Of a stretch of DNA of 64,000 nucleotides, positions 24,339 to 61,990 are shown in pieces; position 1 is the stretch's first letter; every line of letters starts with the position of its first letter. Source of the stretch: Chiloscyllium plagiosum (lineage: Eukaryota). The stretch spans positions 45,271,605 to 45,335,604 of the forward strand of contig NC_057734.1 of the NCBI RefSeq assembly GCF_004010195.1, in the 5' to 3' direction. Position numbers and translations under genes: made by a program. The notes beneath the pieces are model-generated. The model saw only the letters and a list, made by a program, of their open reading frames with translations. It did no database searches and was not told where the DNA came from.

Positions 24339-24972
24339 GATTAGTGGTGCTGTAAGAGCACAGCAGTCTAGGCAGCATCCGAGGAGCAGTAAAATCCACG
24401 TTTCGGGCAAAAGCCCTTCATCGGGAATACAGGCAGAGAGCCTGAAGGGTGGAGAGGGAAGTGAGAGGAGGGTGGGGGTGGGGAGAAAGTAGCATAGAGT
24501 ACAATAGGTGAGTGGGGGAGGGGATGCAGGGCAGAGGAAATTACCTGGGAGTTGCAGTGGGAGAGGGACTCCCTGAGATCCTTGTAGAGAGAGGAGGATG
24601 TTTTTACCTTGTTGATTTTAACCCTACTGCGAATCCTCTTGCAAGGATGCCTGCCTTGAAGAAGTTTTCCTCCTCTCTCTCTCTACAAGAATCTCAGGGA
24701 GTCCCTCTCACACTGCAATTCCCAGGTCATTTCCTCTGCCCTGAATCTCCTCCCCCACTCACGCATTGTACCCTATGCTACTTTCTCCCCAACCCCACCT
24801 TCCTTTCACTTATCTCTCCACCCTTCAGGCTCACTGCCTTTAATCCTGATGAAGGGTTTTTGCCCGAAACGTCGATTTCGAAGCTCATCGGATGCTGCCT
24901 GAACTGCTGTGCTCTTCCAGCACCACTAATCCAGAATCTGGTTTCCAGCATCTGCAGTCATTGTTTTTACCT
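24339..24972. mobile_element. Penelope-like-derived inverted-repeat element inserted in the Ig C exon
   Basis: Perfect 15-bp TSD AGAGTCAGATAGCTG at 24324-24338 and 24973-24987; ~260-bp inverted arms with a ~70-bp spacer; extra tail on the right arm only. Confidence 0.9.
24842..24877 (+). ncRNA. Minimal type I hammerhead ribozyme motif
   Basis: AATC-CTGATGA-a-GGGT-tttt-GCCC-GAAA-C-GTC-GATT: intact core, helix I AATC/GATT, helix II 4 bp, palindromic ACGT helix III, GUC cleavage triplet. Confidence 0.8.
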
Positions 24973-25291
24973 AGAGTCAGATAGCTGCTCACACTGAACG
25001 TGTTGTCCGTCTCCTGCTGGATCCGACTGGCCTCTACACCGTTCCTCCTGACACTGCCATCTACCGTCCACTCAATTTCCACAGCGCCCGGGTTAAAACC
25101 GCTCACCAAACACACCAGGTCGCCGTGTTCTTTTCGGTGATTTGAACCGATGAAGGCGGAAGGAGGGAAACTGATGGTTCCCGCGGACCTGTTTAAAATA
25201 AATTAGGTTCATATGAGTTAAGGGACTGCGTCTTTTAAACAGGAAATTTCTTCAAAGATAATACAATTTAAAATATGTCCATCCATGGAGT

Positions 25292-25962
25292 AGTCATAGA
25301 GATGTACAGCATGGAACCATCCTGTCCATGCCCACCAGATACCCCAACCCAATCTAGTCCCACCTGCCAGCACCCAGCCCATATCCCTCCAAACCCTTCC
25401 TATTCATATACCCATCCAAATGCCTCTTAAATATTGCGATTGTACCAGCCTCCACCACATCCTCTAGCAGCTCATTCCATACACGTACCACCCTCTGCGT
25501 GAAAAAGTTGCCCCTTAGGTCTCTTCTATATCTTTCCCCTCTCACCCTAAACCTATGCCCTCTAGTTCTGGACTCCCCGACCCCAGGGAAAAGACTTTGT
25601 CTATTTATCCTATCCATGACCCTCATGATTTTGTAAACCTCTATAAGGTCACCCCTCAGCCTCCGATGCTCCAGGGAAAAGAGCCCCAGCCTGTTCAGCC
25701 TCTCCCTGTAGCTCAAATCCTCCAACCCTGGCAACATCCTTGTAAATCTTTTCTGAACCCTTTCAAGTTTCACAATATCTTTCCGATAGGAAGGAGACCA
25801 GAATCGCACGCAATATTCCAACAGTGGCTTAACCAATGTCCTGTACAGCCGCAACATGACCTCCCAATTCCTGTATTCAATACTCTGACCAATAAAGGAA
25901 AGCATACCAAATGCCTTCTTCATTATCCTATCTACCTGCGACTCCACTTTCAAGGAGCTATG
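25292..25962 (-). mobile_element. Young CR1 (HER1-like) LINE 3' fragment
   Basis: Open ORF2 C-terminus (25354-25960; LVKPLLEYCVRFWSP, RTRGH). Confidence 0.92.
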
Positions 25963-27073
25963 CATGAGTTTCAGTATATAGTTTAATCCGAGAAAGGTTA
26001 AAGGTGACAGACTGGTTGGGTTTTCGTTTTGAAGAAGCAAAGCTGACAGTCAATGATAAGCTGCAGTGATACATTGGGTAGGACCGAATTTACAGAGAAC
26101 AAAACAATTTATGCCTTTTCTAGTTTCTTAATGGCAGGCAGAATAACGCAATATCTACAACACTTTATACAGCTCCATGGCTCTCTATTGAGATATCAAG
26201 GTGCCGGCAACCATTAAATAGCATTATGAAAACATGAACCTATGTTAAATTTGTTCTGAAGTGCTATCATGTGAAGAAATTGTGATCCGTTTTATTATAA
26301 GTGATACAGTCAGCTTTTGCTCATGTAAAACAAGTAACTGATGGACATCTCCCATCTCTCCTTGGCATTACGATGGCATTACATCCTTACTAACAATAAC
26401 CATTGGATTACAGTTGAGAAGAAATTGAACTGGAGCAGCCATATGCAGGGCATAGACTGGGAAACTTGCAGCGAAATACGCACTTCCGATTCCCCTAAAT
26501 CTTGTCGGCCATTCAAATGCAGTTTCAACAGTACTCCAGCAGCTCCACGCCAGGCACCCCATTTACCATCTCAAACACTGTATCATGTACAAAATGTTTT
26601 GCATCAATTCACCAAGGGTTGGACAACTGCATCCTCTACCACCCGGAAGGACATGGATAGCAGATATGTAGGTATAAAACCGCCTGCAAGTTGCCTCCAA
26701 GACACACGCCAACCTGTTCTGGAACCATATTACCGTTTATTAATTGTGGCTGTTTCTAACTGCAGAAGCTCCCTCTACGTTTACACCCTCATGAAATCTG
26801 CTCGCCACCACGTTCTCCAGATCAATTAGGGATGGGCAATGGATGCTAACCGAGCCAGTGACACCGCCTTACACCAGCCTCCTCCACCCCTTCATGCCCC
26901 ACACTTTCCTCACCCCAACCCCGCCACACATACAGACACATCGCACGAAAGAATGAGTGATTAAGAAGGCATTTTTAATCCTGAAATCAACAGAGATGCC
27001 AACAGAAAAGTATAAATAGATTGTCCGCCCAGTAGCAGCCGTTTTACTCCTCCAACAAATCTTTAAATCTCAC

Positions 27074-27260
27074 GATTTGGAGATGTCGTTGGTGGACTGG
27101 GGTGTACAAAGTTAAAAATCACACAGCACCAGGTTATAGTCCAACAGCTCTAATTGGAAGCACTAGCTTTCGGAGCGCGGCTCCTTCAGCAGAAAGCTCC
27201 GGAAGCTAGTGCTTCCAATTAAACGTTTTGGACTATAACCTAGTGTTGTGTGATTTTTAA
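27074..27260. mobile_element. Short palindromic Penelope-like-derived element (AGCT hammerhead family)
   Basis: Inverted arms around ~27190; TSD ctt(t/a)aaatctcac at 27061-27073 and 27261-27273. Confidence 0.8.
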
Positions 27261-27899
27261 CTTAAAATCTCACCGATGCGCGCTCCTTGAATGGGAGATT
27301 TAGATCTATATTACCTCGAGCAAGAAGTATGTCTACAAGATGTTTTGCGGGGTTAGATTCCCAATTCCACTAACGCTGCACAGAATTGTAACTTTGATTG
27401 TGTTTTGCCCTTCGCTGATCACTGATATTGAAATAACCAGCAAATGAGATCAGATTCCCACAGCCTGTATGTAGTGCACATTCTCAATGCACTAAACTAC
27501 CTGAAAATGTCAATAACCGGAGTGCAATAGGATGAGGTATTTCGTGCTCCTGAGCTCACGCTCACCTCTGCGTTCATTTTAACCACACTCTGCGCTGCTT
27601 CACCAGGATTTGTTCAGTAAAGACCACGAAAAGTCCGGGCTGATTTCATTGCCCCGGGCTGATTTCATTGCCACCCTGCACACACCTCTTCAGATAAGTG
27701 TTTCCTGCCTTTTTTGTTGTCGTCTTGTGAAATCAAAGCTTTCCATTGGGTGCTCCGCAATTAGCCAACAGGCAACAAATGAAGCAATTCCTAGTTGCTT
27801 TAACTACACCCAACGCGTTCAGTTTTTCCATTGCAACTCAAAGCCGCTATATTCAATGCAACAATAGCCGCAGCTAACAAAGCTGGACTCCTAACATCT

Positions 27900-28200
27900 T
27901 CCACCCCTCCAAACACAATAAATACAGCGTCCCCCTTGTCCTCACTTTCCACTCCACCTGCATCCGCATCCAACGGATCATCCTTAAACACTTCCGCCAA
28001 TTCCAATTAGACCCCACCACTCAGAACATCTTCTCCTCCCCACCCCTCTCTACCTGCCGCAAGGACCGTTCCCTTTGCCAAACATTGGTTTGCACCCCAC
28101 TCCTCACCAACCTCCTGTGACAGCTACCCAATGAAGGAGCAGTGCGTTGAAAGCTGGTGTTTCCAAATAAACCTGTTGGACTGTAATCTGCTCTTGTGTA
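27900..28200 (+). mobile_element. Penelope-like element fragment
   Basis: Similar to 51790-51950 (PLVLTFH..RIILKHFRQ...DPTT); followed by a terminal-repeat remnant. Confidence 0.65.
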
Positions 28201-28559: not shown

Positions 28560-29775
28560 CCCCGGGAGTAGCCAAGAGAAGTGGGAAACAGGAAGATTGG
28601 GAAAACTTTAAAAAGCAACAAAGAACCATGAAGCAAGAAATAAAGAAAGGAAAGATAGATTATGTAAACGAGCGCAGAATATAAAAACAGGTAAGAAATG
28701 TTGTTGTAAATTTATGAAATGGAAAAGGGTTGCTAAAGTGAGTGTAGATGTCTTGCAGGATGAGAAACGGGAATTAATATTAGAGTCCTAGGGTGCTGAA
28801 ATAAATGGTGGAAGTTCTAGTAAATACGTTAGTGGTAATTTATCGAAATTTACTGGGCTCCAGGCAGGTCCCGGCAAACCCGAAAACAGTAAATGTCACG
28901 CAGCAGTTTAAAAAAGGGTGTAGGCAAAAGGAAGGTAACTATGAGCCAGTTAGCTTAACAGCTGTAGTCAGGAAAATGCTGGAGGCTGTCACTAAAGAAG
29001 GAATAGTGAGACATCTGGATGGAAAATGTTCCATCAGGTAGACGCAGCATGGATTCAGGAAGGGGGGGAGGTCATGTTTGACAAACTTGCTGGGGTTCTG
29101 TGAGGATGTAACAAGTGTGGCCGATGGAGCGGAACAGGTTGATGTTTTATACTTGGATTTCCAGAAGGCGTTTGATAAGGTGCCACATAAAAAAAACTCA
29201 TCCATGAGATAAGAATGCATGGAGTTGTGGGAATGTACTAGCATAGATAGAGGACTGGTTAACCAATAGAAAGCAGAGAATTGGGATAAATGGATGTTTC
29301 TCTGGTTGGAGATCAGTCCTGAGCGGAGTGCCACAGTGGTCAGTGTTGGGCCCACAGTTGTTCATGATATGTATAAATGATTTGGAAGAGGAGACTGAGT
29401 GTAATGTATCCAAGTTTGCTAATGACACTAAATTGAGTGGAAAGGCAAACCGTGCAGAGGATGATTTAGATAGGTTAATTGAGAGGGCATGGGTCTGGCA
29501 GATGGAGTACAATGTTGGTTAATGTGAGGTTATCCGTTTTGGGAGTAAAAATACTAGGTCAGATCATTATTTAAAGTGTGAAAGATTGCAGCATGCTGTT
29601 GTGCAGAGGGACTTAGGAGTGCTCGTACATGAATCACTGAAAGTTGAGTTGCAGGTGCAACGGGGAATCAGGAAGGCAAGTGAAATATTGGCTTTCATTG
29701 CGAGAGGGATTATATTTAAGAGCAGGGAGGTACTGCTGCAATTGTACAAGGTGTTGGTGAAGCTCCCACCTGGAG

Positions 29776-29816
<41 letters not shown>

Positions 29817-30380
29817 CCCACCTGGAGTATTGTGTGCAGTTCTGGTCTCCTTACTTGAGAAAGGATATACTGGCTTTGGAGGTGGTGCAGAGGAGGTTCA
29901 CCAGGTTGATTCCAGAGATGAGGGAGTTATACTATGAAGAGAGGTTGAGCTGCCTGGAACTGTACTTGCTAGAATTTAGGAGAATGAGAGGGGATCTTAT
30001 AGAAACATATAAAATTGTGAAAGGGTTAGATAAGATAGAGGCATGCATGTTGTTTCCATTAGTGGGTGAGACACGGACTAGGGGAAATGGCCTCAAGATT
30101 ATGAGGAGTAGATTTACGACAGCGGTAAGGAGGAACAGCTTTTCCCAAAGAGTAGTGAATCTATGGAATTCTCTGCCCAAGGAAGCAGTAGAGACAGCTT
30201 CATTAAATATATTCAGGACACAGTTGGATGGTTTTGCTATGGTAGGGGAATTAAGGGTTATGGTGATGATGCAGGAGCTGAGACAATGGATAGATCAGCC
30301 ATAATCATAATGAATGGCAGAGCAGGCTCAACAGCCAAATGGCCTACTCCTGCTTCTGTTACTGTGAAACTATGAAACAA
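28560..30380 (+). mobile_element. CR1 LINE ORF2 fragment
   Basis: NYEPVSLT, GVPQWSVLGPQLF, SKFANDTKL, RTRGNG motifs. Confidence 0.9.
29776..29813 (+). repeat. Poly-C tract (C38)
   Basis: Homopolymer flanked by a duplicated cccacctggag. Confidence 0.9.
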
Positions 30381-30654
30381 TGACTGGGAGCAGGTTCTGA
30401 GATGTCACAAAGCCCTCAGAATCTGGTCTGAAATATGGGACTATGGTTTCAGTATTTCTGCATTGGGAATTTGCACCCCCAGTTGTGGGAATACACTCAA
30501 GTAAAGAGCACACTGTAGGTTAAAGCTTTGCACTTGGTTTCTAATTATCATTAAGAGAAAAAACAAACCTGCGGGAATACTTGCAGTAAACCTTCAGAAC
30601 AAATCACTGGCCCGATTCAAAGTGATCTGAAACTAGGCATGAATGCTCTGCTCA

Positions 30655-31355
30655 ACGTCACAAGGATTGGTGCTGGGTCTACTGTTTTTGGTCATTTATA
30701 TAAGTGATTTGGATGTGAACATAGATGGTATAGTTAGTAAGTTTGCAGATGACACCAAAATTGGAGGTGTTGTGGACAGCGAGGAGTACAACAGGATCTT
30801 GATCCAATGGGCTAATGAGTGGCAAATGGAGTTCAATTTGGATAAATGTGAGGTCCTGTGTTTTGGAAAGACAAATCAGGACAGGACTTATATAATTAAT
30901 GCTGAGAGTGTGTTGCTGGAAAAGCACAGCGGGTCAGGCAACATTCAAGGAGCAGGAAAATCAATGTTTCGGGCCAGAGCCTTTCATCATTCATCATGAT
31001 GGGCTCCCGCCCAAAATGTCGATTTTCCTGCTTCTCGGATGCTGCCTGACCCACTGTGCGTTTCCAGCAACACACTCTCAACTTGGATCTCCAGCATCTG
31101 CAAACCTCACTATCTCTTTATAAACTTAATGGTAAGATTCTGGGGAGTATTGCTGAACAAAGAGACCTTGGAGTACATAGTTTCTTGAAAGTGGAGGCAC
31201 AAGCAAAGAGGGTAGTGAAGAAGGCATTTGGTATGCTTTCGTTAAGTCGCATGTAGATGGGATAACAAAGTAGGCATTTGGTATGCTTTCCTTTATTTGA
31301 CAGAGCACAGAGTATAGCAGTTGGGAGGTCATGCTGTGGCTGTACAGGATATTGA
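30655..31355 (+). mobile_element. CR1 LINE RT fragment
   Basis: SKFADDTKIGG; interrupted by a palindromic element. Confidence 0.8.
30902..31117. mobile_element. Short palindromic Penelope-like-derived element
   Basis: ~90-bp inverted arms around ~30990; degenerate ~14-bp TSD ttata(ta/aa)(a/c)ttaatg at 30888-30901 and 31118-31131. Confidence 0.8.
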
Positions 31356-32334
31356 TTAACTGATGTGAACCAGCTGAAAACAAATTTCTCCCTATTTGTT
31401 TATTGTTTATTGGATAACGTTGGCATTGTTATTGATACATCCAATTAAATGACAGAATTTGCTGGCTAATCAAGCAGTATCCCACTTTTCATGGATTGGA
31501 CTCACTAACCTGGACAAAGAAGGTGTGTGGCTTTGGAAAGATGTGGAAAGCTCTTTAAGTATGAAGATGAAAGTAAATACATCGTGTCCCTTTTAATAAG
31601 CGATTAACTTTAGGACAAATAGTCAGTGTTACTTTCAGTGAGCTTAGAATTTATCAGATTCAGACACACCTGCCTGGTTAGCACACAGTTTTGGTTTTGA
31701 TAACTAAGTACCGGAAGTCAACTTAACCTGGTGCTAAGCCAGGCAGAAGCAGGTTTCTAGACTAAATCTATTAGAGCTGTCTATTGTGGTCTAATGGCCA
31801 ACAAATGTGGATTCATTGCACCCATATCCAGAGTCATTGTGTGATGTACTTGGCGGACACAGCAGTAAGTCTTGCAATGACTTGAAAACTGAGGGAGACA
31901 GCACAAAGGCTTTTGGAAATTACACAGGAGGTTCTAATGGAAGAGGTCCAGAAGGATGTCCGAGATCAATTGGAGGGAAGCATACCAACTAGCTTTCCTC
32001 ATTGTCCTCGTCCTACTGTCCCACAATCCTATAGTGGCTGCTTTTCCTGGCCTCATGTCCTCTTCTCAACCTTCATCCACACCAAAATAGGCCTTAAAGA
32101 AACTGCCTGGAATACATACCCTGTTTCCTGAGGTTTCACAAGGTGTTCAGTACAATGGAATAATGCAGCACTTGCTCTTTTTTAGAGAAATTCTCAGAGA
32201 ATTCACAATGGAGCTTATTCAAGGAACAGTTACTGTGGATTCTTGATAAGTGTGTACTGTTCAGGCAGGGAGAAAGTTGTCGAACATGGGAGCTGTGGTC
32301 TACTATAGAAGTTGAATCTCTCTTCATTAGGAAG

Positions 32335-33905
32335 AAGAAGGATTATGTGATGGCTCATTTAGGGCGCTTGAGAGTTACAAGTTAGCCAGGAAAGACCTAA
32401 AGAGAGAGCTAAGAAGAGCCAGGAGAGGGCGTGAGAAGTTCTTGGTGGATAGGATCAAGGAAAATCATAAGGCTTTCTACAGGTATTTCAGGAATAAAAG
32501 AATGACTAGAGTAAGATTAGGGCCAATCACGGAAATTAGTGGGAAGTTCTGTGTGTAGTCAAAGGAGATAGGGGAAGCACTAAATGAATACTTTTTGTCA
32601 GAATTCACACTGGAAAAAGACAATGTTGTCGAGGAGAATACAGAGATACAGGCTGCTAGACTGGATGGGATTGAGGTTCACAAGGAGGAGGGGTTAGCAA
32701 TTCTGGAAAGTGTAAAAATAGACAAGTCCCTGGGCCAGATGGGATTTATCCCATGATTCTGTGGGAAGCCTTTGGCTTTGATCTTTATGTTGTCATTGTC
32801 TACAGGAAAAGTGCCAGACAACTGGAGGTTAGCAAATGTTGTTCCCTTATTCAAGAAGGGGAGTAGAGACACCCCTGGTAATTACAAACCAGTGAGCCTT
32901 ATTTTGGTTGTGGGTAAAGTGATGGAAAGGGTTATAAGAGATAGGATTTATAATTGTCTAGAAAGGAATAAGTTGATTAGGGGCAGTTATCGCGGTTTTG
33001 TGGAGGGTAGGTCACACCTCACAAACCTTACTGAGTTCTGTGAGAAGGTGACCAAACAGGTCGATGAGGGTAAAGCGGTTGATGTGGTGTGTATGGATTT
33101 CAGTAAGGCATTTGATAAGGTTCCCCAAGATAGGCTATTGCACAAAATACAGAGGCAAAGGATTGAGTGTGATTTAGTGGTTTAGATCAGAAATTGGCTA
33201 GCTAAAAGAAGACAGAGGGTGGTAGTTGATAGGAAATACTCAACCTGGAGTTCAGTTACTCATGTGTACCGCAAGGATTTCTTTTGGGGTCACTGCTGTT
33301 TGCCATCTGTAGATGAGCAGAGAGATCTCGGTGTCCATGCACATAGATCCCTGAAAGTTCCCACCTACGTTGATAGGGTTGTTAAGAAGGCATACGGTGT
33401 GTTAGCTTTTATTGGTAGAGGGATTGAATTTCAAACCATGAGGTCATCCTGCAGCTGAACAAAACTCTGATGTGGCCGCACTTGGAGTATTGCATACAGT
33501 TCTGGTCACCAAATTATAGGAAGGATGTGGAAGCTTTGGAAAGGGTTCAGAGGAGATTTACTAGGATGTTGCCTGGTATAGAGGGAAGGTCTTATGAGGA
33601 AAGGCTAAGAGGTGACTTAATTGAGGCATATAAGATAATCAGAGAGTTATATAGGTTGGGCAGTGAGAGCCTTTTTCCTCAGGTGGCAATGGCTAGCACG
33701 AGGGGGCATAGCTTTCAGTTGAGAGGTGATAGATATAGGACACATGTCAGAGGTAGTTTCTTTACTCAGAGAATAGTAGTGGCGTGGAACGCACTGTCTG
33801 CAACCATAGGAGACTCGCCAACTTTAAGGGCATTTGAATGGTCATTGGATAGGCATATGGACAAGAATGGAATAGTGTAGGATAGATGGGCTTCAGACTG
33901 GTTTC
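32335..33905 (+). mobile_element. CR1 LINE ORF2 fragment with internal deletions
   Basis: NYKPVSLI, MDFSKAFDKVP, PHLEYCIQFWSP. Confidence 0.9.
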
Positions 33906-34944
33906 TCAGCAGATATTCTAAGTAACACACAACTCATTAAAAAACACTAGATGAATATTCCTAACATAGGCTTCAGCTGCTTTCCCAAGTATATGGGTTA
34001 AATCTAACCATTTTTTGTCTAAATCTCATTTTCAGGAAGTTGACCAGGGGAATAAGATATTTAGCAATGACTAGGAATATACACCTATTTCTTATGTTTG
34101 TATGAAATCAGATTGCAATTTATGAGATGCCTATGTGATGAAAATGGTAATAAAATACTGAGTTTTTCTGTCCTGTTCAGAAAATATTCTAGTTAGAGTA
34201 GAGTACACTCTGCATTCATTTAATTGAATGACTGTAAACTTGTGCTCAGATTTCTGTGATATGACAATGAACCACAGCTAGCTGAAACATGTGCTGTCTG
34301 AACCCTATTATTTGACCAAAAATGTTGCCACATTTTCAAGCACCATTTAATAATGCTCCCAGGTGTGTATGCTGTTTACTTTGAATCTTCCAGAGTTTGG
34401 AGTATCTGTGTCCCCATCCCACTCTTTATCAGATACTGACTGAACATCAGTTGTACTTGTGCTATGGGCTCTGACTTCATCAAAGTCTTAAACCTCAGAA
34501 ATAATCGCTTAGTCTGCTGAAGATATGGGAATTTCATTTTGAACCTGATTGAAGCAAGTATTAGAGTCTGCTGAAGATATTTTCCTAATCAACCTGCAAT
34601 ACGTAATGATACATCTCTTGAACCCAGACCTTCTGACTAAGAGGCAGGGGCATTACCATTGTATCACAAGAGTCCCTCAACTCCAATGTTATCCTGAGGA
34701 AATTTCTGATTTAAGCACTGTAGGGCTTGACCAGGAAGTTTAGCGATCTGGAGACTTAATTTTGGTTTATATAGGCACTTTTTCTCAACTTACTCTGAAA
34801 CAAATTCAAAAATAAGTATAGATTCTATATCAAAATTAGAACACACGAAACTGGCTGGTAATTGTGGCGTTTTACAATCAGTAATTCCCCTCCCCTCAAT
34901 GACCGCTAGAGGGAGCCAGACTCTAGGAAATGGAAGGAGTAAAT

Positions 34945-35990
34945 GACTCAGATGCTGGATTTCGTACTGAAAACAACAAATGTGAGAGATCACAGCAGGT
35001 CAGACAGCATCCATGGAGAGAAAGCAAGCGAATATTTCGATCTAGATGTCTCTTTCTTAGAGCTGAAGTGAATTATGGAGGGGACAGCATTTATGCTATA
35101 GTTTGGGGGTGGTTGTGGGAGTAGTGGGTATAGGAGAAAAGAAGGGGGAGAAAATATGTTGACAGTTCAGATTCAGTAATCAGAATGTGAGAATGGCAGA
35201 GCAATGGTGTATCTAACTGACAGACTGGAAAGAACAGGCAGTCCCACTGGGGTAGAGGGAGGGGAGAGAGGACATGATAACAGAATGGAACATATAAAGC
35301 TAAAAGGGAAGAAATGGGAAAAGGTTCACAATTTGAAGGTGTTGAACTCAATATAGTGTTAAGTCCAGAAGGTTGTAAGATGCCTAGTCTAAGATGAGAT
35401 GTTGTTCTCAGTTTGTGTTGTGATTCACTGGAGCAATGCAGCATGCCAAGGACAGACTGCCTTCCATTTCTTTTAGCTTTACTCTGGCATCATGTCCTTT
35501 CTCCCTTCCCCCGACCCCGGTGGGACTGTCTGTTCTTTCCAGTTAGAGACAAAAAAACTGTGGATGCTGGAATCCAAAATAGACAGGCAGGAGAACACAG
35601 CAAGCCAGGCAGCATCAGGAAGTGGAGAAGTCGACATTTCAGGTATAACCCTTCTTTGGGTCCCAAAATGTCAACTTCTCCACCTCCTGATGCTGCCTGG
35701 TTTGCTGTGTTCTTCCAGCCTCCTGCCTGTTCTTTCTGGCAGTTAGACATACCATTGTTCTGCCCTTCTCACATTCCAGTCACTTAATCTGAACTATCAA
35801 CATCCCTTCTCTCCAAGCACCACACTACCATTACCGCCCCTGACCAAATTATAGCATTAATGCTGTCCCCACCACACATCACTTCACTTTAACTCTGGTG
35901 ATGAGTCACCTAGACTCAAAATGTTAGCTTGCTTTCTCTCATGGATACTGTCTGATTTGCTGTGATCTCCAGCATTTGTTGTTTTCAGTC
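34945..35990. mobile_element. Large inverted-repeat Penelope-like-derived element with a nested short palindrome (~35547-35730)
   Basis: 34965-35320 is the reverse complement of 35460-35990; the same family occurs at 44195-44988. Confidence 0.7.
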
Positions 35991-36279: not shown

Positions 36280-39200
36280 GCATATCAGGGAGGGGGAGTG
36301 TTACCTGGACTCAGTGTTTCAGGAGGCAGTGATACTCCTTAGATTAACTACAGTCGTCAGGGACAGGAGGGTGTGACTATGAGTGAGGTGTTCAAGGGAT
36401 CCAGGAGATGCTGCTGAAGGAGCCTCAACCCTTGAGATTTTCTAACAGGTTTGAGATTCTTGCTCCCTGTACTGCTGAGAGCGGGAACTGAAGGGAAGAT
36501 GAGCAAACTAACCAAAGCACTATGGTTCAGGGAACCATTCAAGAGGGGAGAGTAAAGAGAAATGTAATTGTAATCAAGGATAGTATAGTCAGGGGAATAG
36601 ACATTGCTCTCTGTGGTCAGGATTGAGAGTCCTGAAGACTGTGTTGCTTACCTAGTTCGCGATATCTCATCTGGGCTGCAGAGGAACTTGGAGTGGGCGG
36701 AGAACTATCCAGTTGTAATAGTCTACATAGACACCAACCATATCAGTAGAAAGAGGAAAGAAGTTCTGCGGAGGGAAAATGAGCATCTAGGGGCTAAGTT
36801 AAAAAGCAGAACCACAAATGTAATAATCTTTGGATTATAACCTGAACCACAAGCTAATTGGCACAGGGTCAACAAGATTAAAGAGGCTGAAAGATTAGTG
36901 TTGGAGAAAGGGGTTCAAATTCATGGGACATTGGCACCAGTACTGGGGAAGGAGGGAGCTGTTCTGATGTTATGGGCTCCACTGGAATCATGCTGGGTCC
37001 AGTGTCCTGGTGAATAGTATAACTAAGGCTGCAGGTAGGGCTTCAAATTAAATAGTGGAGGGGGAGGGTTTAAATACATGGAAAGTTATGGAACAAGGGA
37101 GCGGGATAGGGCTCAGCAGAGATTATTAATTTTACCAGAACAAGTAATAGGACAGAGAGTATGGAAATGCTCAGGAATCTAAATTTCAGGCATAGCAGAC
37201 AAGAGGACAACTGTGAGAAAGGGGGCAGTCAATGCAGGACTGAGGGTGTTGCACTTAAATGCATGCAGTATATAAAACAAGGTAAATGAGCTTGTACTGC
37301 AGATGGAAATCACTAGGTACAATGTTGTGGTCATCACAGAGACTTGGCTGCAAGGAGATCAGGATTGGGAACTAAATTGATTGATTGGTGCAGTTATTGT
37401 CCCACTTTTATTTGCAAATACAGTGAAAATATTGTACAATGTCAGCATAAAAATAGAAGTTCAACATTATAGTCATTCATAAGTACATAGCCTTGGGCCT
37501 GGATTCAGGCTCTTCCACCCCAACATGAAGCAGTCAGCTAGCCTGGAGTACCTTCGTCATGCCACTGCTGCAGTACAGTTGCCATTCGTCAGTGCCATCT
37601 TGACTCTACTGTTGCCACTGCCCACCCTGAGTCTGCACTGGGCTAATCTCAGCAATGCAGCCCTTGCTGAAGTTGCCGAGTCTCATACCAGACACTCAGC
37701 CCAAACCCGCCTCCCTCTGACACCCCTGTGAACACAACACAAACTCAACTCCCCCCACCGCTGGAGGGAACACAATCTTGCCTCCGATGCACTGGACCCC
37801 TCGATACCGTCAGAGCTCTGAAAACATTCTGAGCTCCTTAAATCTTCAATGGGCTTACAAAATTAAAACTCACACAACACCAGGTTATAGTCCAACAGGT
37901 TTAATTTGACGCATTAGCTTTCGGAGCGCTGCTCATACATCAGGTGGTGATGAAGAAGCAGCGCTCCAAAAACTAGTGCTTCCAATTAAACCTGTTGGAC
38001 TATAACCTGGTGTCATGTGATTTTTAATTTTGTACACCCCAGTCCAACACCGGCATCTGCATTCACATGGCAACTACACCAAAGAATACACATCCTATTG
38101 CAGGGACAAGCAGATGGGCAGAGGGGCGGGGTTGCCTTGTTAGTAAGACATGAAATTAAATCAATAGCAAGAAGTGATATAGAATCAGAAGGCGTAGAAT
38201 CTGTGTGGGCAGAGTTGAGAAACTGCAAAGGGAAAAACGACCCTGAAGGGAGATATGTACGGGGTCCCGAGCAGAAGTCAGGATATGGGACAGAAAATAA
38301 GTCATGACATTAAAAAGGCATGTAAGAAAGGCACTATTATAATAATCAAGGGTGACCTCAATCTGGATTGGGATAATTAGGTTGCAGCAGGTCCGAAATA
38401 AAAGAATTTCTGGAATGCCTATGAAATGTTCTTGGGGCAGCTTGTGGAAGAACCCACTAGGGAAGAGGAAATTCTGGATTTGTTGATGTGTAATGATGGG
38501 GACTTGATTAGCGAGCTTAAGTTAAGGTGAACAAACCCCTGGAGGCAGGGCAGTGACCGTAATATAATAGAATTCAACCTGCAGTTTGAGAGGGAGAAGC
38601 TGAAATCAGATGTAATGGTATCAGAATTGTATAAAGGTAATCTAAACAGGATGAGGGATTCTCAGAGTTGGTTGGAATGGCAGTCTAGCAGGAAAGACAG
38701 TGGAGCGGTAATGACAGGAGTTTCTGAGGGTAAATTGGGAGGCAGAGCAGAAATTCATCCCAAGGAAGAAGAAACCTACTAGCAGGAGGAATAGGTAACT
38801 ATGGCTGACAAGGAAAGTATAAAAGCAAAAGAAAAAGGATACAGTGTGGTGAAGATCAGTGGGAAGTCTTTAAAAACCAGAAGAGGATAACTGAAAAAGC
38901 AAAAGGAGGAGAAGATGAAATATAAGGGTAAGTGGCTAGTAATATAAGAGAAGATTGGAAGAATATTTTTAGATATGTATAAGGTAAGAGAGAGAGAGAG
39001 AGGCAAGAATGGAGTTGGGGCCACTGGAAAATGAGGCTGGAGAAGTAGTAATGGGGAACAAAGAAATGGTGGAGGAACTGAATAGGTACCATGCATAAGT
39101 CTTCATGATGGAAGGCCCCAGTAACATACCAGAACTTCAAGAGAGTCGGGTACAGAGGTGAGTGGCAGTCACTAAAGAGAAGGTACTGGGATAGCTAACA

Positions 39201-39570: not shown

Positions 39571-39999
39571 GTATTTCATGCAAAAAGATTTTTTTCGTGA
39601 AGTTAATTTTTTTTTAGTCACTTGTGGAATGTGGGCTTTGTTAACTGGCCAGCATTTATTGTCCATCTGTAGTTGTCTATGTAATCCTAGAAATTTGTTC
39701 TGTGAAACCTTTTGGGCAGGCAGTTCTAAAAGAATAATGGAGAGCATCAAATTCATCTTGTGATAAGAAAGGTAAGCTTATGGAGCAAAGAAGTAGGGAC
39801 ATTCGTGAATTAAGAATGCAAGAACTAAATATAATGAAATGATGGAAGTTGTGAAGCCATTGGTTGTCCTGGTTGATATTTTGTGTACAATTTTTTACAA
39901 AGTTTTTGACAAAATGCCACATATTAGATTGTTAACAAAGTTGAAGCCAAATGCATTAAAATACCGCTCAGAAAAAGAATCGGAAATCATACTACCTAC

Positions 40000-40142
40000 C
40001 ACATCAGACCAAGGCACATAAATAGCAAGTGGGACAAAACACCTGTGCTTCAACAGAGGCTCACTGATGATGTTACCTAGCATGGGGGTGATGAAATATC
40101 TGACAACAAATCTACCAGCTCAGCAAGCAAACCTACAACCTG
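40000..40142 (+). mobile_element. Penelope-like 3' terminal fragment with degenerate hammerhead
   Basis: caCTGATGAtgttacc...ggtgatGAAAtatctg at 40062-40102; related to the 52615-52811 element. Confidence 0.55.
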
Positions 40143-40239
40143 ACAGTACACAGTACTCCAGCTCACCAGCACCCTGTACAGCCACAGCATGGCCTCCCTC
40201 TTTTTAAAACTCCCCCCTCCATTACTGAAGGACAATGAA

Positions 40240-46896: not shown

Positions 46897-47119
46897 TTGA
46901 AACTTTATTGCTGGAACAGCACAGCAGGTCAGGCAGCATCCAGGGAACAGGAGATTCGACGTTTCGGGCACAGGTCCTTCTTCAGGAATCATTCCTGAAG
47001 AAGGGCCTGTGCCCGAAACGTCGAATCTCCTGTTCCCTGGATGCTGCCTGACCTGCTGTGCTGTTCCAGCAATAAAGTTTCAACTTTGATCTCCAGCATC
47101 TGCAGACCTCACTTTCTCC
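46897..47119. mobile_element. Young near-perfect palindromic Penelope-like-derived element
   Basis: 97-bp arms (46893-46989 / 46991-47087) with 1 mismatch and a 1-nt spacer; perfect 15-bp TSD TCAAGATAGCAAAAG at 46882-46896 and 47120-47134. Confidence 0.92.
46991..47026 (+). ncRNA. Minimal type I hammerhead ribozyme motif
   Basis: ATTC-CTGAAGA-a-GGGC-ctgt-GCCC-GAAA-C-GTC-GAAT: intact core and fully paired helices I and II. Confidence 0.82.
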
Positions 47120-47327
47120 TCAAGATAGCAAAAGACATCCCACCAGGTCTGAATTGAGTAAGAAAACTCAGAGATCAGTATCCAGGAGACTGCAGGAACT
47201 GGAACAGTTCAATTGTTTAGCAACATCTAAATCTGAACCAATCAAAATAAACATCTGGTTAAATGGTCACCAGGTTCTCATGGCAGTTAATCCCAGTGAT
47301 GCAGATCCTGTCTTGACCAAAATTCAA

Positions 47328-49243: not shown

Positions 49244-51082
49244 CTCTGGAATCCAACCCTTAAGTTTTCATAAGACCTCGGCCAGGCTGAGAACCTGTAT
49301 GGGGAACCTTTAAAGAGTAAGGATGCAACTTTAGTCCTAGTCTCTTCTGAGAAGCAGCTTGTTCAGTTACCACTGATTGTCATAAAAGGCTCAGGCCCAA
49401 GCCTGATGGGATAAAATTGGTGGAGAAACATTCAACTTGATTGGCTCAAGATTTTTCAATTAGAAAATGGCTGCCTGAGTGAAATCTTAATTATAGTTTT
49501 CTGGAAAGCCCAGGGATATCAAAGGAGGCAAGGCCACCTTACACGTTGACCAGGAAGCAATTCCATGATTCTGCAAGCACCAAGCAGTGCCATTTGCCTT
49601 ATGTGGAAAAGTAGAGGTAGAATTCAGGAGTAAACCACTTTTTGCAGCTGCATAAATACCCAATCCCTTGGATAGAGGACTTATATGTAAAACTGGCAGG
49701 GGAATTGTCCTTCACGAAGCTGGACTTGAGCCATACATATCTGCAATTATGATTAGATGAGGATTCCCAGAAGTATGCTCCAATTAATAGCCATAAGGGT
49801 TTATACCAATGTATAAGACTGCCTTTGGGATTTTATCAGCCTGTGGCATTTTCTGGTCGACAATGGAGAACATTATACAATGTCTATCCGAGGTGCTAAT
49901 AACCAGGAAGACCAATAAAGGGCATGTAGAGAACTTGGACAGGTTGCTTAAACGTTTCTCCGAGTTGGGTGCACGCCTTAGGAGGGAAAACTATGTGCTC
50001 CAGGCACCCCAAGAGACCTACTTAGGCAACAGAGTCGACAGACCAGGTTATACCCCTTGGACGATGAAGTGAGGGCAATCAAAAATGTTCTGGCTCTCAC
50101 TTCTGTACCATGGCTTAGGTCTTTCTAGGATTTGTGGGTAAATACAAAGCTTCATACATAACCCAGTCTCCATCTTGGCAGCCTTATACCCGCTATTGTA
50201 AAACGGACAGTCTTGGAAAAGCTCTTGTAGCCAAGAAGTAGCCTTTAAGGAAGTGAAGCAGCTTCTATCCTCATCCAAGGTATTGGCACATGACAATCTC
50301 AAGTGAGGTGTGGTGCTGACATGCAATGCCTCCCCATATGGTATCAGGGTAATGTTGGCTCACCGGTGATGTAGCAGTGGAGGAATGCCTGATAACGCAT
50401 GCTTTCTGGACTTTGGCTGATGCTGATGAAAAGTTTATGCTTGAAATGTCGACTCTCCTGCACTTCAAATGCTGTCTAACCAGCTGTGGCCTTCCAGCGC
50501 CACACTCTTTGACCCTGAATGAAAATATCTCCAGATAAAGATGGAAGGTTTGGCAGCCATTTTTGGTGTACAAACGTTCCACCAATAACTTTGTGGATGT
50601 AAATCTGTAATAGTAATGGACCACAAACTCCTGCTAGGGTTACTCAAACAGGACAGGCCTGTGCTGCCCATAGCTTCCGGTGAAATTCAGCGGTGGATTC
50701 TTATTCTGAGAAAGTACAATTTCAAATTGGAACACTGTCCAGGAGGCCAAGTGACAAATGCAGATGTCTTGAGGGACTTCCCACTGGCGGGTATATCACC
50801 AGTTGCACCACCACTAGAAGAGTCCATTCTGATTTTAACCTTTCTGGACACCCTTCTGGTCACTGCTGACAATATCAGACCATGAAGACAAAAAGATCCC
50901 ATTCTGGCAAAACCAGAACAGCTACTGGTGATGGGGGAAACAAAAGGGCTGTCACAATTAGGATTAAAACCTTTCTGGACCTGGTGAGACTAAATCAGTG
51001 CAGAGGATGGTATATTACTATGGGGAGCAAGAGTGATTGTCCTGAGCAAAGGTTGCTGCCAGATATTGGCTGAAATCCACCA

Positions 51083-52516
51083 AGGTAAAAACAATGACTG
51101 CAGATGCTGGAAACCAGATTCTGGATTAGTGGTGCTGGAAGAGCACAGCAGTTCAGGCAGCATCAAAGAAGCAGCGAAATCGATGTTTCGGGCAAAAGTC
51201 CTTCATCAGGAATAAAGGTAGAGAGCCTGAAGCATGGAGAGATAAGCTAGAGGAGGGTGGGGGTGGGGAGAAAGTAGCATAGAGTACAATAGTCTCTTTG
51301 TTGGCTATGTAGAACAGTTGATCTTCCGTAATTACACCGGCACCACTCGCCACCTTTTCCTCCGTTACATTGATGACTGCATTGGCGCCACCTCGTGCTC
51401 CCGCGAGGAGGTTGAGCAATTCATCAACTTCACCAAAACATTCCACCCTGACCTTAAATTTACCTGGACCATCTCTGACACCTCCCTCCCCTTCCTGGAC
51501 CTCTCCATCTCCATTAATGACGACCAACTTGCCACGGACATTTTTTACAAACCCACCGACTCCCACAGCTACCTGGATTACACCTCTTCCACCCTACCTC
51601 CTGCAAAAATGCCATCCCATATTCCCAATTCCTCCAACTCCGCTGGATCTGCTCCCAGGAGGACCAGTTCCACCACAGAACACACCAGATGGCCTCCTTC
51701 TTTAGAGACCGCAATTTCCCTTCCCACGTGGTTAAAGATGTCCTCCAACGCATCTCGTCCACATCCCGCACCTCCGCCCTCAGACCCCACCCCTCCAACC
51801 ATAACAAGGACAGAACGGCCCTGGTGCTCACCTTCCACCCTACGAACCTTCACATAAACCAAATCATCCTCCGACATTTCCGCCACCTCCAAAAAGACCC
51901 CACCACCAGGGATAGATTTCCCTCCCCACCCCTTTCCGCCTTCCGCAAAGACCNNNNNNNNNNNNNNGGACGTCTCATAGCAGAGCACTTTAGGGAACAT
52001 CTCTGGGACACCAGCACCGATCAACCACACCGCCCTGTGGCCTAACATTTCACCTCCCCCTCCCACTCTGCCAAGGACCTAGAGGTCCTGCGCCTTCTTC
52101 ACCGCCGCTCCCTCACCACCAGAAGCCTGGAGGAAGAATGCCTCATCTTTCGCCTCTGAACACTTCAACCACAGGGCATCAATGTGGACTTGAACATTTT
52201 CCACATTTCCCCTTCCCCCACCTCACCCCAGTTCCAAACTTCCAGCTCAGCACTGTACCCATGACTTGTCTTACCTGTCTATCTTCATTTCCACCTCTCA
52301 ACTCCACCCTCCCCCCGACTGCCACCTTCATCCCCTCCCCCACTCACCTATTGTACTCTGTGCTACTTTCTTCCCACCCCCACCCTCCTCTAGCTTATCT
52401 CTCCACACTTCAGGCTCTCTGCCTTTATTCCTGATGAAGGGCTTTTGTCTGAAATGTCAATTTCGCTGCTCCTTAGATGCTGCCTGAACTGCTGTGCTCT
52501 TCCAGCACCACTAATC
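51083..52516 (+). mobile_element. Penelope-like element (RT + GIY-YIG remnant) with ~170-bp inverted terminal arms, inserted in Gypsy integrase
   Basis: LRYIDDCIG (RT catalytic motif), LPFLDL, FYKPTDSHSYL; 51122-51291 is the reverse complement of 52348-52516; duplication ctgaaatccacca(aggt) at 51070-51086 and 52517-52533. Confidence 0.92.
51954..51967. other. Assembly gap (14 N)
   Basis: Run of N. Confidence 1.
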
Positions 52517-52614
52517 CTGAAATCCACCAAGGTCATCCAGGGATTTCCAAAATGAAGATGTCGGTGAAAAGTTCTGTCTGGTGGCCAAGATTGGATACCA
52601 ATGTAGATGGTAGT

Positions 52615-52811
52615 CCAAAGTTGTGAGAAGATTTGTAGCTCGGGTGCTCGTTGTTGTGGTTCTGTTCGCCAAGTTGGGAATTTGTGTTGCAGACATTTCG
52701 TCCCCTGTCTAGGTGACATCCTCAGTGCTTGGGAGCCTTCTGTGAAGCGCTTCTGTGATGTTTCCTCCAGCATTTATAGTGGTTTGTCTCTGCCACTTCC
52801 GGTTGTCAGTT
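52615..52811 (-). mobile_element. Penelope-like 3' terminal fragment with hammerhead motif
   Basis: 17-bp TSD ccaatgtagatggtagt at 52598-52614 and 52812-52828. Minus strand 52728-52689 reads GCA-CTGAGGA-t-GTCaCC-tagaca-GGgGAC-GAAA-t-GTC-TGC. Confidence 0.75.
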
Positions 52812-53713
52812 CCAATGTAGATGGTAGTTGATAGGGCAATGCTCAGAGTGCCAATAAGGACAAACTTTACCACCAGCAGCTCCTCCACTTTCATAAGTAT
52901 GACCGGATAATCCCTGGACTCTGTTACACATTGACTATGCCGGCCCTTTCATGGGGTCTATGTTTTTAGTCATTATGGACACACATTCAGAGTGGTTGGA
53001 CATGCATAAAGTTCATTCGACAGTACAGTGATGATGATTGAAAAACTGCGAGCATCTTTTGCAACACACAGGCTCTCAAAAGTGTTGGTCACAGATAGCA
53101 GGGCTTGCTTTAACAGCAGAAAATTTGTGTATTTTCTCAAGTCGAATGGCATTTAGCATGAAAGGACAGGTCCATATCATCCATTGTTCAATGGTCTCAT
53201 GGAAAGACCAGCCCAAACTTTGAAGACAGGCTTAAAGAAACAGACTCTTCTAAGTGAGAGAGACAGTTTCCTTCATCGAGACCATGGGAATGTCCTTGCA
53301 TGGGTACGAGGCATGGTTGACATGAGGTCAGGTCCTGTGACGTAAGAGGGGAGATCCTGACCAAGCATGTGGACCACATGAAAGCTGTAACTTCACAAAT
53401 GGACAGGAGCAAAAATACCCAGCCCCTCAGAACATCCAGCAAGGCTGTCAGAACCTGTGGGTTCTCCCGTCCACCTTGCATTGACAAAACCTCTGAGGAT
53501 GATATGGACACAGTAGATGTCACAGCATCGATGCCATTGCCACCTGAAGAAGACAAATTTCTTCCGAGACGCTCTGGGCACAAGGGGTAGGTTTGTTTAA
53601 TGTCGTCAGTAACTGAGGTAGAGTCAGAGGAACCAGACCTGATATGAAAATGCCCCAAGATAAACTGCAGAAAATGAATGAGCCTATACCCCAGAACTTA
53701 AGAGGGGAACAAA

Positions 53714-56457: not shown

Positions 56458-57616
56458 CCGAGAAGAAAGGCCAGTTTAGTAGCGGTCACAAGCCTGACCT
56501 GTCCATAAAAAAACAAATGGACCGCAGTAATTGGCCGCGCATGCGCCTTCGCTTCCTCTGTTCTCTTTCAAAAGCAGCAACTTAGATTAGCGCCTGACAT
56601 GCCAATCCCAGTTTCTAGGGCACAAATATTAAAATGGAAGCCAACCCATAGAAATATCTTTTATACCTCTCCCATAGATTCATTGGTTGCCAGTAAAGGT
56701 ATTTTGCTAATCATTTCGAACCGTGACTGCAGTTTGGGGCTTCTTTCTCTATCTGGACCTAGGCAGGTCTCAGTCAACCGAGTCTGTCACTATTCAGGAA
56801 TCGAGATCAGAATTTCTTCTCAACCTGGTCAGAAATATTACTACATATCTCTAGAGCAGGTGGGAATTGAACCTAGGCCTTCTGGCTTAGAGGAGGGACA
56901 TGAACGCGGCGCTACAAGGACCCTAGTAACTCGTCATGTTCACCTATAAAGTTTAAATATCAATCAAAGGATAACTTTTGTTTAAACACCTTTTTTAACA
57001 CCGTTCCGATTCGTAAACAAGTACTTTTTCCACTCCCCTTCTTGCTACGTTGGGCAGCTGTCCTTTCCAGCATTGATTTCTTGTTGATTCCCTGCAGTGT
57101 CGGATTATCATAACACCCATTTTGTTTACAAAAACATGAAAGAACTGCGGATGCTGGAAATCGGAAACCAAAACAGAAAGCGATGGAAAAACTCAACAGG
57201 TTCGGCAGCATCTGGAGAGAGAAAGAGAGTTAATCTGTTCGGGTCGATGACCTTTCATTAGGGGTTAACTTTTATTTATATTTTTAAAGGGAAGAAACGT
57301 GATACCAAAATAATGAAGACCCCGCCCAAATGAACTGATATTGTGAACCCTCTGAGAAAATGCAACCATGACTTTAAGATTTTATTGTAATCTAACAGCC
57401 TGAAATATATCAAAATTGTGATTAGTGCTAGAGTGTAATTCATATAGAATTCGGCTTTTGATGCAGGTGAACAAAGCCAATTTTTAAACTTCCGCATAAA
57501 CTCTGGGTCGTGCAGGTGTTTCCTATGTTCCTGAGTGAGACGAACAAGCTGAACTCACGGTGGATTGATCTGATCCAAGACATTTTCCGCAGCGCTGAGA
57601 TCTCTGATACTGCCCG

Positions 57617-60114: not shown

Positions 60115-60728
60115 GGAGAGCTGAAAGACGTTTGCTGTGAGCAAGGAAGAGAAAGTTACACGCGTGAAACGCTAGAGTTGTACCCTGGTGTGAAATAGTA
60201 TTCCATAATGGAAGAACTATTATTTAATGCTCTTCTCTGAAGAAAATCGAAATTATTTTAATATATGAATTATTTTCGTTTAATTTTAAAACGTGACTGC
60301 CAGGTTATGGGGTATTCTGCAATATTTGTAGGTGACTAATATCATACATAAACTGGCAGCTAACTCGGTCATTGGGCTGCCTATTATATGTAGGCAGTGC
60401 TATCCGAGCTGTCCTTTTATAAAGGAATGTCAGTGATGTGTTGTGAGTAGTCTTTTCACTGAGGGCTGTCTGTATCTTTTTTAAAAGGAAGTGCCTTGAG
60501 TGTATGCTGATGTACCAGTATGCAGACGAGTGTCATAGAGTGCCTTGCATTATCGTGAGTTTTTCAACATTTAAAGATCAATCGGTTCGATTATTCCTTG
60601 TGTATTGTTAGTGTGACAGATATTTTACTCTATTCCATTTCGTAATGTTCCCTGCGTATTACAGGAATTTGCTGCTTGTATTATCTCCTGCACATTGATG
60701 CAAATTCTTCTTTGGCTATCTAAATGCT

Positions 60729-60835
60729 AGGAGAAAATGAGGACTGCAGAAGTGCTTATGCCCGTTATGTAGATTCTCCTGCTCCTCGATGCTGCCTGGC
60801 TGGCCGTGCTTTTCCAGCACCACATTCTTCGTCTC
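60729..60835. mobile_element. Internally deleted palindromic Penelope-like-derived element downstream of the hes5 stop
   Basis: Tail ggagaaaatgaggactgcag plus one arm; flanked by ctatcta(a)atgc repeats. Confidence 0.6.
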
Positions 60836-61057
60836 CTATCTAATGCCCTTGCCCTGTAACAATGCGGGATATGAATCAAGCCTCAATCCCAAGTTTCACT
60901 GTATATTGCATTGTAACAATGCTGATCTAAATATATTCCTCTATTCATGGTTCTGGTTGTAAATATGTCCTATCTATACTGATGGTGAATCCATGCACAA
61001 GCTATAATCACAATCCTATGTTAAAATCGTTATTTCATTGTAACAATGCTAATTCTG

Positions 61058-61063
61058 AATAAA
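61058..61063 (+). terminator. Candidate hes5 polyadenylation signal
   Basis: First canonical AATAAA I found downstream of the stop codon. Confidence 0.4.
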
Positions 61064-61769
61064 TGATTGCATTGACAATTCCTTCTCTGTGTCTAAGTGA
61101 ATGTATGTTAAGCAGTCCGTAATCCGTTTATAATTGGCAATTACACCTGTGCCACTAAAAGTCAAAACAGCTGAGATATGCTTATAAGGTATTTTTAGTG
61201 CAGATTTCCCACAACCAACACCAGTCATATTTATGTCTGTATATTATATTGATTTATTTAGGTAATTTCTCATTTTTATTGCTTAAATTAATGCCGTTTG
61301 TGTCTTTTAATGACACTTCATGTAAAATCTATCAGGCATGACTGATTGGGGGAGTGAATCAGTGTTCAGCTGCTAATTGCTGCCAATATTTTGACAGAGC
61401 GGATTAGCATAGAGTCCCGGTGATAGCACATACCTTACTCTCTGTCTCATATTTTCTGTTCAGTTCTTGTTGCTTGCAGTAATTTCTTCATTATTAGCAT
61501 CATTTTATTCCAACAAGTAAGGATATATTGTGAGACAGTGGTAATGTCCCTACCTCTGGGACAGAAGGCACAGGTTGAAGTCTCACTGGCTTTAGTTTTG
61601 TGTGCTAACAGATCTGAACACGTTAATTATCATATCAATTACCACAAGCAAATTCACATTAAACAATTATTAGTTAATTAATCCTGAGTTGAGGCAAAAT
61701 TTGTATCGCATTCATGAGTTAACCTTTCAATATTTGACTTGACATGTACACAATTACCACATTAAGGGT

Positions 61770-61990
61770 TGAAAATGTGTTGCTGGAAAAGCGCAGCAGG
61801 TCAGGCAGCACCAAGGAGCAGGAGAATCGACGTTTCGGGCATAAGCCCTTCTTCAGGAAGGGCCCTGAAGAAGGGCTTATGCCCGAAACATCGATTTCCC
61901 CTGCTCCTTGGATGCTGCCTGACCTGCTGCGCTTTTCCAGCAACACATTTTCAGCTCTGATCGCCAGCATCTGCTGTCCTCACTTTCTCC
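61770..61990. mobile_element. Short palindromic Penelope-like-derived element with hammerhead cores
   Basis: ~90-bp arms around ~61860; perfect 15-bp TSD TACCACATTAAGGGT at 61755-61769 and 61991-62005; CTGAAGA-aGGGC ttat GCCC-GAAA on both strands. Confidence 0.9.

Follow-up and report, generated by a model that had tools for sequence, protein, structure and literature searches.

Minimal hammerhead ribozymes (min-HHRs) in the pseudo-long terminal repeats of metazoan Penelope-like elements were described by Cervera and de la Peña in 2014 (PMC4209133). They are type I hammerheads that lack loop 3, with a palindrome at positions 15.2–16.2, an extra base between positions 9 and 10.1, a G10.1–C11.1 pair and a short helix I; several families occur per genome, and the copies are mostly solo or in close opposite-strand pairs. 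The class, its dimer logic, the opposite-strand pairs and the large copy numbers are thus already published (PMC4209133; reviewed in PMC6765202). In the Poseidon element PAc of the green anole, the ribozyme cuts only with its protein and is dispensable for insertion in vitro (Frangieh et al., 2024, PMC11167929), and the function of the hammerhead in endonuclease-positive Penelope-like elements is described as still open (PMC8557442). All of the structural traits listed above recur in a 64,000-nucleotide stretch of the genome of the shark Chiloscyllium plagiosum (NC_057734.1, positions 45,271,605–45,335,604; hereafter the window, whose own coordinates are used throughout), for which an original prediction had proposed several families of such ribozymes. 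We put a probability of about 85% on the reading that the window carries minimal type I hammerheads in terminal repeats of several Penelope-like families, the copies being mostly 5′-truncated, decayed and likely no longer able to cut. The window makes no case for a new ribozyme class or for a working ribozyme population; it holds an already described kind of element in shark DNA, and the copies likely record past insertions.

The motifs are present where the original prediction had placed them, far above chance. Three motifs, at 24846, 40064 and 46995 on the plus strand, pass a strict descriptor that asks for CTGANGA, GAAA-x-y-T-H with complementary x and y, and at least 3 bp in each of helices I and II; 300 dinucleotide shuffles have a mean of 0.003 and a maximum of 1. 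A relaxed descriptor has five matches, against 0.04 expected from shuffles. The two best motifs have all features intact: one of subfamily A1 at 24842–24877 (plus strand, predicted cut after 24873) and one of subfamily A2 at 46991–47026 (plus strand, predicted cut after 47022). The figure of more than a dozen copies given previously holds and is too low, since nhmmer profiles made from the window's own copies detect 30 terminal-repeat copies: 21 of type A, seven of type B and two of type C. The reversed window, which served as the control, has none. The 30 copies sort into 19 insertions, 11 with two inverted copies (22 copies in all) and eight with one; no direct tandem of hammerhead copies occurs among them.

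Most copies are decayed. Only four of the 30 (24846 plus, 46995 plus, 61856 minus and 40064 plus) satisfy a rule that combines both boxes with a palindromic helix III and minimum lengths of 3 bp for helix II and 2 bp for helix I; both boxes are intact in 11, and box plus palindrome is retained in 12. The extra base after A9 and the G10.1–C11.1 pair are found in A1, A2, A4, B and C copies. A 4-nucleotide palindromic helix III that is unable to close within one molecule, as claimed originally, agrees with the published description (PMC4209133), and the palindrome is ACGT in family A and AGCT in family B, but the claim does not extend to the family C motif at 52689–52728, which reads ATGT and is not palindromic. 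Families A and C have 23 copies, in 14 of which the helix III CpG has become TG, CA or TA, whereas the non-CpG GC of family B is retained in six of seven copies, a pattern that fits neutral decay. Two further details of the original description do not stand. Family B as first written (CAC/GTG, GGAGC/GCTCC) is only a composite, absent as such from the window, where none of the seven copies is intact and the minus-strand copy at 43038 has a helix II of ACAGC/GCTCC. For 61826–61890, the helix I given as AATC/GATT or ATTC/GAAT is in fact 2 bp in the minus copy and 1 bp in the plus copy.

Support for covarying helices differs between and within families. Across families, helix II occurs as GGGC/GCCC, GAGTC/GACTC, GGAGC/GCTCC and GTC/GAC, all of which pair and all of which start with G–C after one extra base; to this extent the predicted covariation of helices is borne out. 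Within family A it is not significant, the observed values being matched in 22 to 171 of 500 shuffles. The alignment used comprises 12 of the 21 A copies, several of which carry the opposite arm and not native sequence in the columns of the 5′ strand, and in seven of the 12 the third helix I pair does not form. The reads used come from one raw genomic run of 1,874 million bases, the organism of which may differ from the species of the window, and 104,930 of them match 46970–47270 at 80% identity or more. At 47023–47026, GATT is present in 84% of reads (46,087 of 54,820, with T at 47025), and in both main subfamilies, A1 and A2, the native sequence upstream ends in ATTC. The majority helix I is ATTC/GATT, that is, 2 bp plus a U–U mismatch. 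The two fully paired forms, AATC/GATT and ATTC/GAAT, are therefore separate single changes, each on one side.

These weaknesses bear on the suggestion that the motifs are functionless look-alikes, kept only by lying in abundant repeats. In line with it are the non-significant covariation within family A, the mismatched majority helix I and an Rfam scan of the window that returned no hammerhead family, its six matches (up to an E-value of 10) all being to microRNA hairpin or small nucleolar RNA models under their gathering scores. The Rfam hammerhead models require a closed helix III, and chance resemblance is also hard to square with four helix II sequences that all pair, start alike and stand between the same boxes. 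Moreover, homologous motifs cleave in vitro and lose activity when the core is mutated (PMC11167929). We consider look-alikes extremely unlikely.

The assignment to Penelope-like elements, which upholds the original prediction, is clearest for family A: its traits match those of the min-HHRs (PMC4209133), and its repeats adjoin remnants of a reverse transcriptase (RT), thumb, cysteine linker and GIY-YIG endonuclease at two loci (21026–21870 and 51285–52195). The second locus lies in a 5′-truncated element, apparently of Neptune type, at 51087–52516 (plus strand), in which an inverted repeat with a tail (hammerhead C3 at 51209, minus strand), a truncated and broken RT–thumb–endonuclease open reading frame (ORF; 51285–52195) and a further repeat (C3 at 52431) are flanked by an exact 17-bp target duplication; both hammerheads are decayed. 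The first, at 21026–21995 (plus strand), is a broken remnant of putative Neptune-type thumb, cysteine linker and GIY-YIG, with a CRNCKTC-type linker and endonuclease remnant at 21442–21867, fused directly to an A2 terminal repeat that starts at helix II (21877). Two predicted Chiloscyllium punctatum proteins share 92% and 90% identity with the RT fragment at 51279–51611, whereas identity outside that species does not exceed 74% among the matches listed, which points to a bamboo shark as the likely host. Six Penelope-like frames of the window (13 proteins scanned) match no Pfam family, and of seven relatives scanned, four have RVT_1 above the cut-off and five have GIY-YIG weakly, below the cut-off; the identity of the fragments is taken from these relatives. 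Since all Penelope-like ORFs in the window are broken fragments, they differ in this from the described Neptune clade, which they resemble in the C-terminal GIY-YIG, the cysteine linker between RT and endonuclease, 5′ truncation, an adjacent inverted copy and a tail of 30–40 bp at one end (PMC8557442). The cysteine linker is a mark of Neptune and Nematis (PMC8557442), and an inverted repeat combined with a tail at one end is known from earlier descriptions of Penelope (PMC8557442, PMC3846280); family A insertions show both of these, and target duplications as well. The carrier of family A is thus probably a Neptune-type element, set apart from Nematis by host range. Two assembly gaps lie in the window, at 41741–42154 and at 51954–51967, the latter inside the Neptune-type ORF at the linker.

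The best A1 hammerhead belongs to an insertion at 24339–24972 in which an internally deleted unit is present as a pair of inverted arms with 89% identity, and which is flanked by an exact 15-bp target duplication (24324–24338 and 24973–24987). In both arms, the first 30 or so codons of the Neptune ORF (89–92% identical to the start of P0241, which has a 10-residue stretch in common with the start of the RT-bearing P0124) are fused in the same way to the terminal repeat, so the deletion was likely already present in the template. The right arm contains one whole 363-nucleotide unit (24600–24962) with a tail, plus a few bases more, a span that matches what a tandem or circular template would give. 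Animal retrozymes have been traced to Penelope-like elements in a 2026 preprint, in which the one chondrichthyan genome has a mean consensus length of 363 bp (bioRxiv 10.64898/2026.07.22.740005); the agreement in length may be chance. Like the animal non-LTR (long terminal repeat) retrozymes, the unit is a non-autonomous Penelope-like derivative with a type I hammerhead, and it differs from them in being an inverted pair and not a tandem, in having a minimal and not a canonical hammerhead and in retaining about 30 ORF codons (PMC7229834). In that preprint, retrozymes are recognized by two or more tandem units in succession, with complete hammerheads; as this locus has one whole and one partial unit in inverted orientation, it is called retrozyme-like only. 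The insertion splits an immunoglobulin (Ig) light-chain-like constant exon (24250–25202, minus strand), in which an in-frame stop follows the insertion point; the exon is likely a pseudogene.

Many of the remaining insertions are short foldbacks. The best A2 hammerhead lies in one at 46897–47119, in which two terminal-repeat ends, alike at 92 of 93 bases, meet at an axis at 46990, with a tail on the right arm only and an exact 15-bp target duplication. A second A2 foldback, at 61770–61990 (axis about 61860), also has an exact 15-bp duplication; its minus copy (C3 at 61856) has all features with a 2-bp helix I, and its plus copy has ACAT in helix III. A third, at 30902–31117 (axis about 30991), is decayed. 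In the A3 foldback at 35540–35722, the cores are gone from both arms and the target duplication is 14 bp with one mismatch; it is nested in an A4 element (34933–35988) with two long inverted arms and decayed hammerheads, the right-arm helix II of which is GAGTC/GACTC. This nesting is an instance of Penelope-like elements inserting into one another. The other A4 element (44202–44991), in which the arms are again inverted and the hammerheads decayed, contains a direct duplication of about 120 bases at 44570–44800. Overall, exact target duplications of 15–17 bp flank five of the 19 insertions, where the best score in 300 random pairs is 11; eight further insertions score 8–11, within or at the edge of the null range, and none was found for the other six.

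Family B is likewise represented by foldbacks: at 42948–43164 (axis about 43043), with both boxes and a broken helix II in the minus copy and a helix II without a core in the plus copy, and, in decayed form, at 37851–38062 (axis about 37945) and 27074–27260 (axis about 27192). At 27902–28199 (plus strand), only 13 bases separate a putative Neptune-type ORF fragment (27902–28114) from the decayed family B repeat downstream of it. The seven foldbacks of the window are alike in size (about 185–225 bp) and have a one-sided tail, as would be seen if foldbacks were master elements, transcribed as hairpins and retrotransposed as a unit in the manner of a miniature inverted-repeat family. That the complementary axis base is present in 147 of 584 reads at 46990, so that the same junction recurs elsewhere, and that the junctions at 37945 and 43043 could share one ancestor, speak for such a mode. 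The three A2 junctions, however, all differ from one another, and reads contain variants of the 46990 junction shorter by 3 and 4 bases (10 and 16 reads), which favours repeated formation over one master foldback. There are also nearly 300 distinct rows of read joints, with few reads in each of the best 15, and axis depth is 0.2% of core depth. A master foldback thus seems improbable, and we keep to terminal repeats of Penelope-like families that likely formed foldbacks repeatedly.

Family C has two copies. The first, at 52615–52811 (minus strand), is a solo terminal repeat with TATAAA, a hammerhead at 52728–52689 and an exact 17-bp target duplication. An ATG opens helix II, with the predicted cut site 28 bases and the end, in an AC-rich stretch, 105 bases past it; in PAc, the corresponding distances are 26 to the cut site and 111–118 to the end, and the ATG likewise lies at the start of helix II (PMC11167929). 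Family A1 differs from PAc in this respect, its ATG lying about 135 bases downstream of the cut site. The second copy, at 39991–40163 (plus strand), is divergent. Its hammerhead (40061–40103) passes the strict descriptor, so that the motif previously given at 40062 does exist; it lies on the plus strand, and its helix III is ATAT, which can be reached from ACGT by two CpG changes. Only solo repeats, and no ORF body that could confirm a place in the Penelope/Poseidon clade, were found for family C in the window. The first copy lies in a remnant of what we take to be a Gypsy-like integrase (52520–53100, plus strand, readable as GHPGISKMK...), which adjoins the 51087–52516 element.

The 5′ ends of the copies, judged by eye, bear on the template from which they were made. 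Eighteen of the 30 (nine A2, two A3 and seven B) start in the interval from about 6 bases upstream to 18 bases downstream of C3, ten (A1, A4 and C) reach well upstream of the hammerhead, and two singletons have no assignable start. None starts at the cut site, and no loose read end among those listed falls there. With so many starts at the front edge of the ribozyme and none at the cut site, uncleaved RNA is likely the template, and cleaved RNA was rejected as such. Joint positions at 47010, 47038, 47078 and 47087 in the reads match mismatch clusters of the query copy and were not taken as breakpoints.

Splicing could also produce ends near the core. A pyrimidine tract ending in CAG, which resembles a 3′ splice site, precedes the core by about 17 bases in A1 and 2 bases in A4 (52410–52430, 24825–24845 and 35063–35090), and a similar feature has been reported for Penelope of Drosophila virilis. 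While A1 and one A4 copy do have the tract upstream of the core, it is these very subfamilies whose copies reach further upstream. In the loose-end consensus of A2, moreover, the AG closest to the core is still about 25 bases away from it and does not coincide with the ends. An origin of the front-edge ends by splicing is not favoured.

With uncleaved RNA as the likely template, insertion may proceed as follows. The GIY-YIG endonuclease likely makes a staggered cut, as suggested by the target duplications of 15–17 bp. Reverse transcription would begin at one of two alternative sites, some 60–100 bases downstream of the ribozyme, a placement based on the tail being on one arm; the RT would copy uncleaved RNA and often end at the front edge of the ribozyme. 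Two complementary DNAs (cDNAs), one per DNA end, would then likely be linked in head-to-head orientation, which would produce foldbacks whose junctions vary. For such palindromic junctions, self-priming on an antisense template has been proposed elsewhere (PMC3846280). In source elements, the motif is likely a slow ribozyme that pairs with a second copy via the ACGU or AGCU palindrome, and, judging from published work, the element's own protein is probably needed. Copying of uncleaved RNA agrees with the anole system, in which insertion did not need cleavage (PMC11167929). A tentative extension, which we hold to be rather unlikely as a whole, is that the uncut hammerhead itself sets the end of reverse transcription: protein would grip the ribozyme region and release at its front edge, the cDNAs would be joined head to head, most insertions would silence their own ribozyme in a hairpin and seed sources of double-stranded RNA, and the 363-nucleotide unit would spread from circular or tandem RNA as a Neptune-derived shark retrozyme.

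Folding was assessed by nearest-neighbor predictions, which leave out protein, magnesium and co-transcriptional effects. In the foldback transcripts of both the 24846 and 46995 loci, helices I and II have a predicted probability of 0.00, and the two best copies would be buried in the double-stranded RNA of their own foldbacks. In isolated arms, helix II forms with a probability of 0.93–0.96 for 46995 and 0.12 for 24846. For the two best motifs, the computed energies of the double hammerhead are −11.5 and −13.1 kcal/mol, whereas other dimer folds reach −21.4 and −18.3; its energy is about that of two monomers and 5–10 kcal/mol above the other dimer folds. Few copies are probably active.

Copies are very numerous all the same. 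Per Mb, read depth indicates about 19 family A copies when taken over the core and 42 when taken over the downstream motif. At a genome size of 3.5–4.7 Gb, this would correspond to roughly 65,000–200,000 copies. The density of A copies in the window, 328 per Mb, far exceeds the read estimate, partly because the profile takes in copies below 80% identity, and is not suited to extrapolation. Descriptor searches in print found about 4,000 hits in coelacanth and 9,000 in Xenopus (PMC4209133), which the read-based numbers, tens of thousands of cores for a genome of about 4 Gb, exceed, although the counting methods differ; up to 120,000 retrozyme copies are given for axolotl (PMC7229834). The original inference of a very large ribozyme population is therefore sound as to copy number, but the step from there to a ribozyme population is not supported, as most copies are decayed and the best two lie in foldbacks that would block them.

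In its strongest form, that inference would mean a large working population, with dispersed copies being transcribed, cleaving as dimers in trans and shaping host RNA. The read density of cores, the four copies with all features and the helix II predicted for the excised 46995 arm are compatible with it, and the repeat occurs in contigs of two runs that are guessed to be RNA and are uninformative on ends or levels. Yet 26 of the 30 copies lack one feature or more, the decay of helix III resembles that of methylated CpG, none of the 19 insertions is a direct tandem, the best copies lie in predicted hairpins and the double hammerhead is outcompeted by other dimer folds. Such motifs are also described as weakly active in vitro (PMC4209133), the anole RNA data have no reads ending at the cut site (PMC11167929), and Xenopus dimers were inactive in eight of nine cases (bioRxiv 10.64898/2026.07.22.740005). 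A working population is thus very improbable, and decayed terminal repeats of Penelope-like elements remain the preferred reading.

Several observations weigh against the preferred reading or parts of it. The hairpin would be avoided if transcription began at the axis. A single adjacency, that at 27902–28199, joins family B to a Penelope-like ORF, and it has no target duplication; the target-duplication scores of the B foldbacks and of the 30991 foldback (8–10) are within the null range. Family C was assigned to Penelope-like elements purely by its features, and a protein search with its 34 codons returned only two unrelated repeat proteins. No remnant was found in the A4 arms with a Neptune protein profile. 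At least 18,850 read alignments (at least 9,926 A2-type and at least 8,924 A1-type) run into native upstream sequence, compared with about 34,800 for the depth of the core, so truncation at the front edge does not hold as a rule across the genome, and an axis like that at 46990 is crossed by only about 0.2% of core depth.

The other family A copies are a decayed solo A2 copy that starts at the core (50419–50520, plus strand), a decayed A2 copy that starts within the core and is preceded by an inverted tail stub (60724–60835, plus strand), an A-type repeat end without a core that starts at the GAAA box (1731–1824, plus strand) and a decayed repeat end of another A subfamily (57145–57261, minus strand). 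The end at 1731 is enclosed by nested inverted repeats (47 and 56 bases, 79–85%) of a non-hammerhead element at 1365–2142. The window as a whole is rich in retroelements, with CR1-like RT frames and Penelope-like fragments, and also holds Ig variable (V) and constant (C) exons. CR1-like long interspersed nuclear element (LINE) remnants lie at 6690–9513, 17332–19102, 25354–26049, 28939–33880 and 41448–42846 and include an RT frame (RVT_1, E-value 2e-25) and an esterase-like ORF1 at 9031–9513. The RT remnant of another LINE type at 47574–49057 ends in an ALKBH8_N-like stretch (E-value 4e-08). A V-set exon fragment at 782–1084 (minus strand) adjoins a second copy of the 3′ part of the constant exon near 650–752, which BLAST aligns over 39 bases at 97% and in which the same stop recurs; this juxtaposition of V and C fragments is odd.

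Compared with the min-HHRs already described (PMC4209133), the elements of the window differ in three respects: the host is a shark, unnamed in the text or in the two supplement files searched; the helix II of family A is only 4 bp, with a majority helix I of 2 bp plus a mismatch; and the copy estimates are higher, as given above. No description of such hammerheads in sharks, nor of clustering of copy ends at the front edge, was found in the literature searched, which was mostly non-subscription; the dimer paper of Lunse, Weinberg and Breaker may include sharks. With copies in the tens of thousands, such a genome amounts to a natural experiment, in which the ends of the copies record which RNA was reverse-transcribed. 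Here, these ends suggest that the RNA was uncleaved and that copying stopped at the front edge of the ribozyme.

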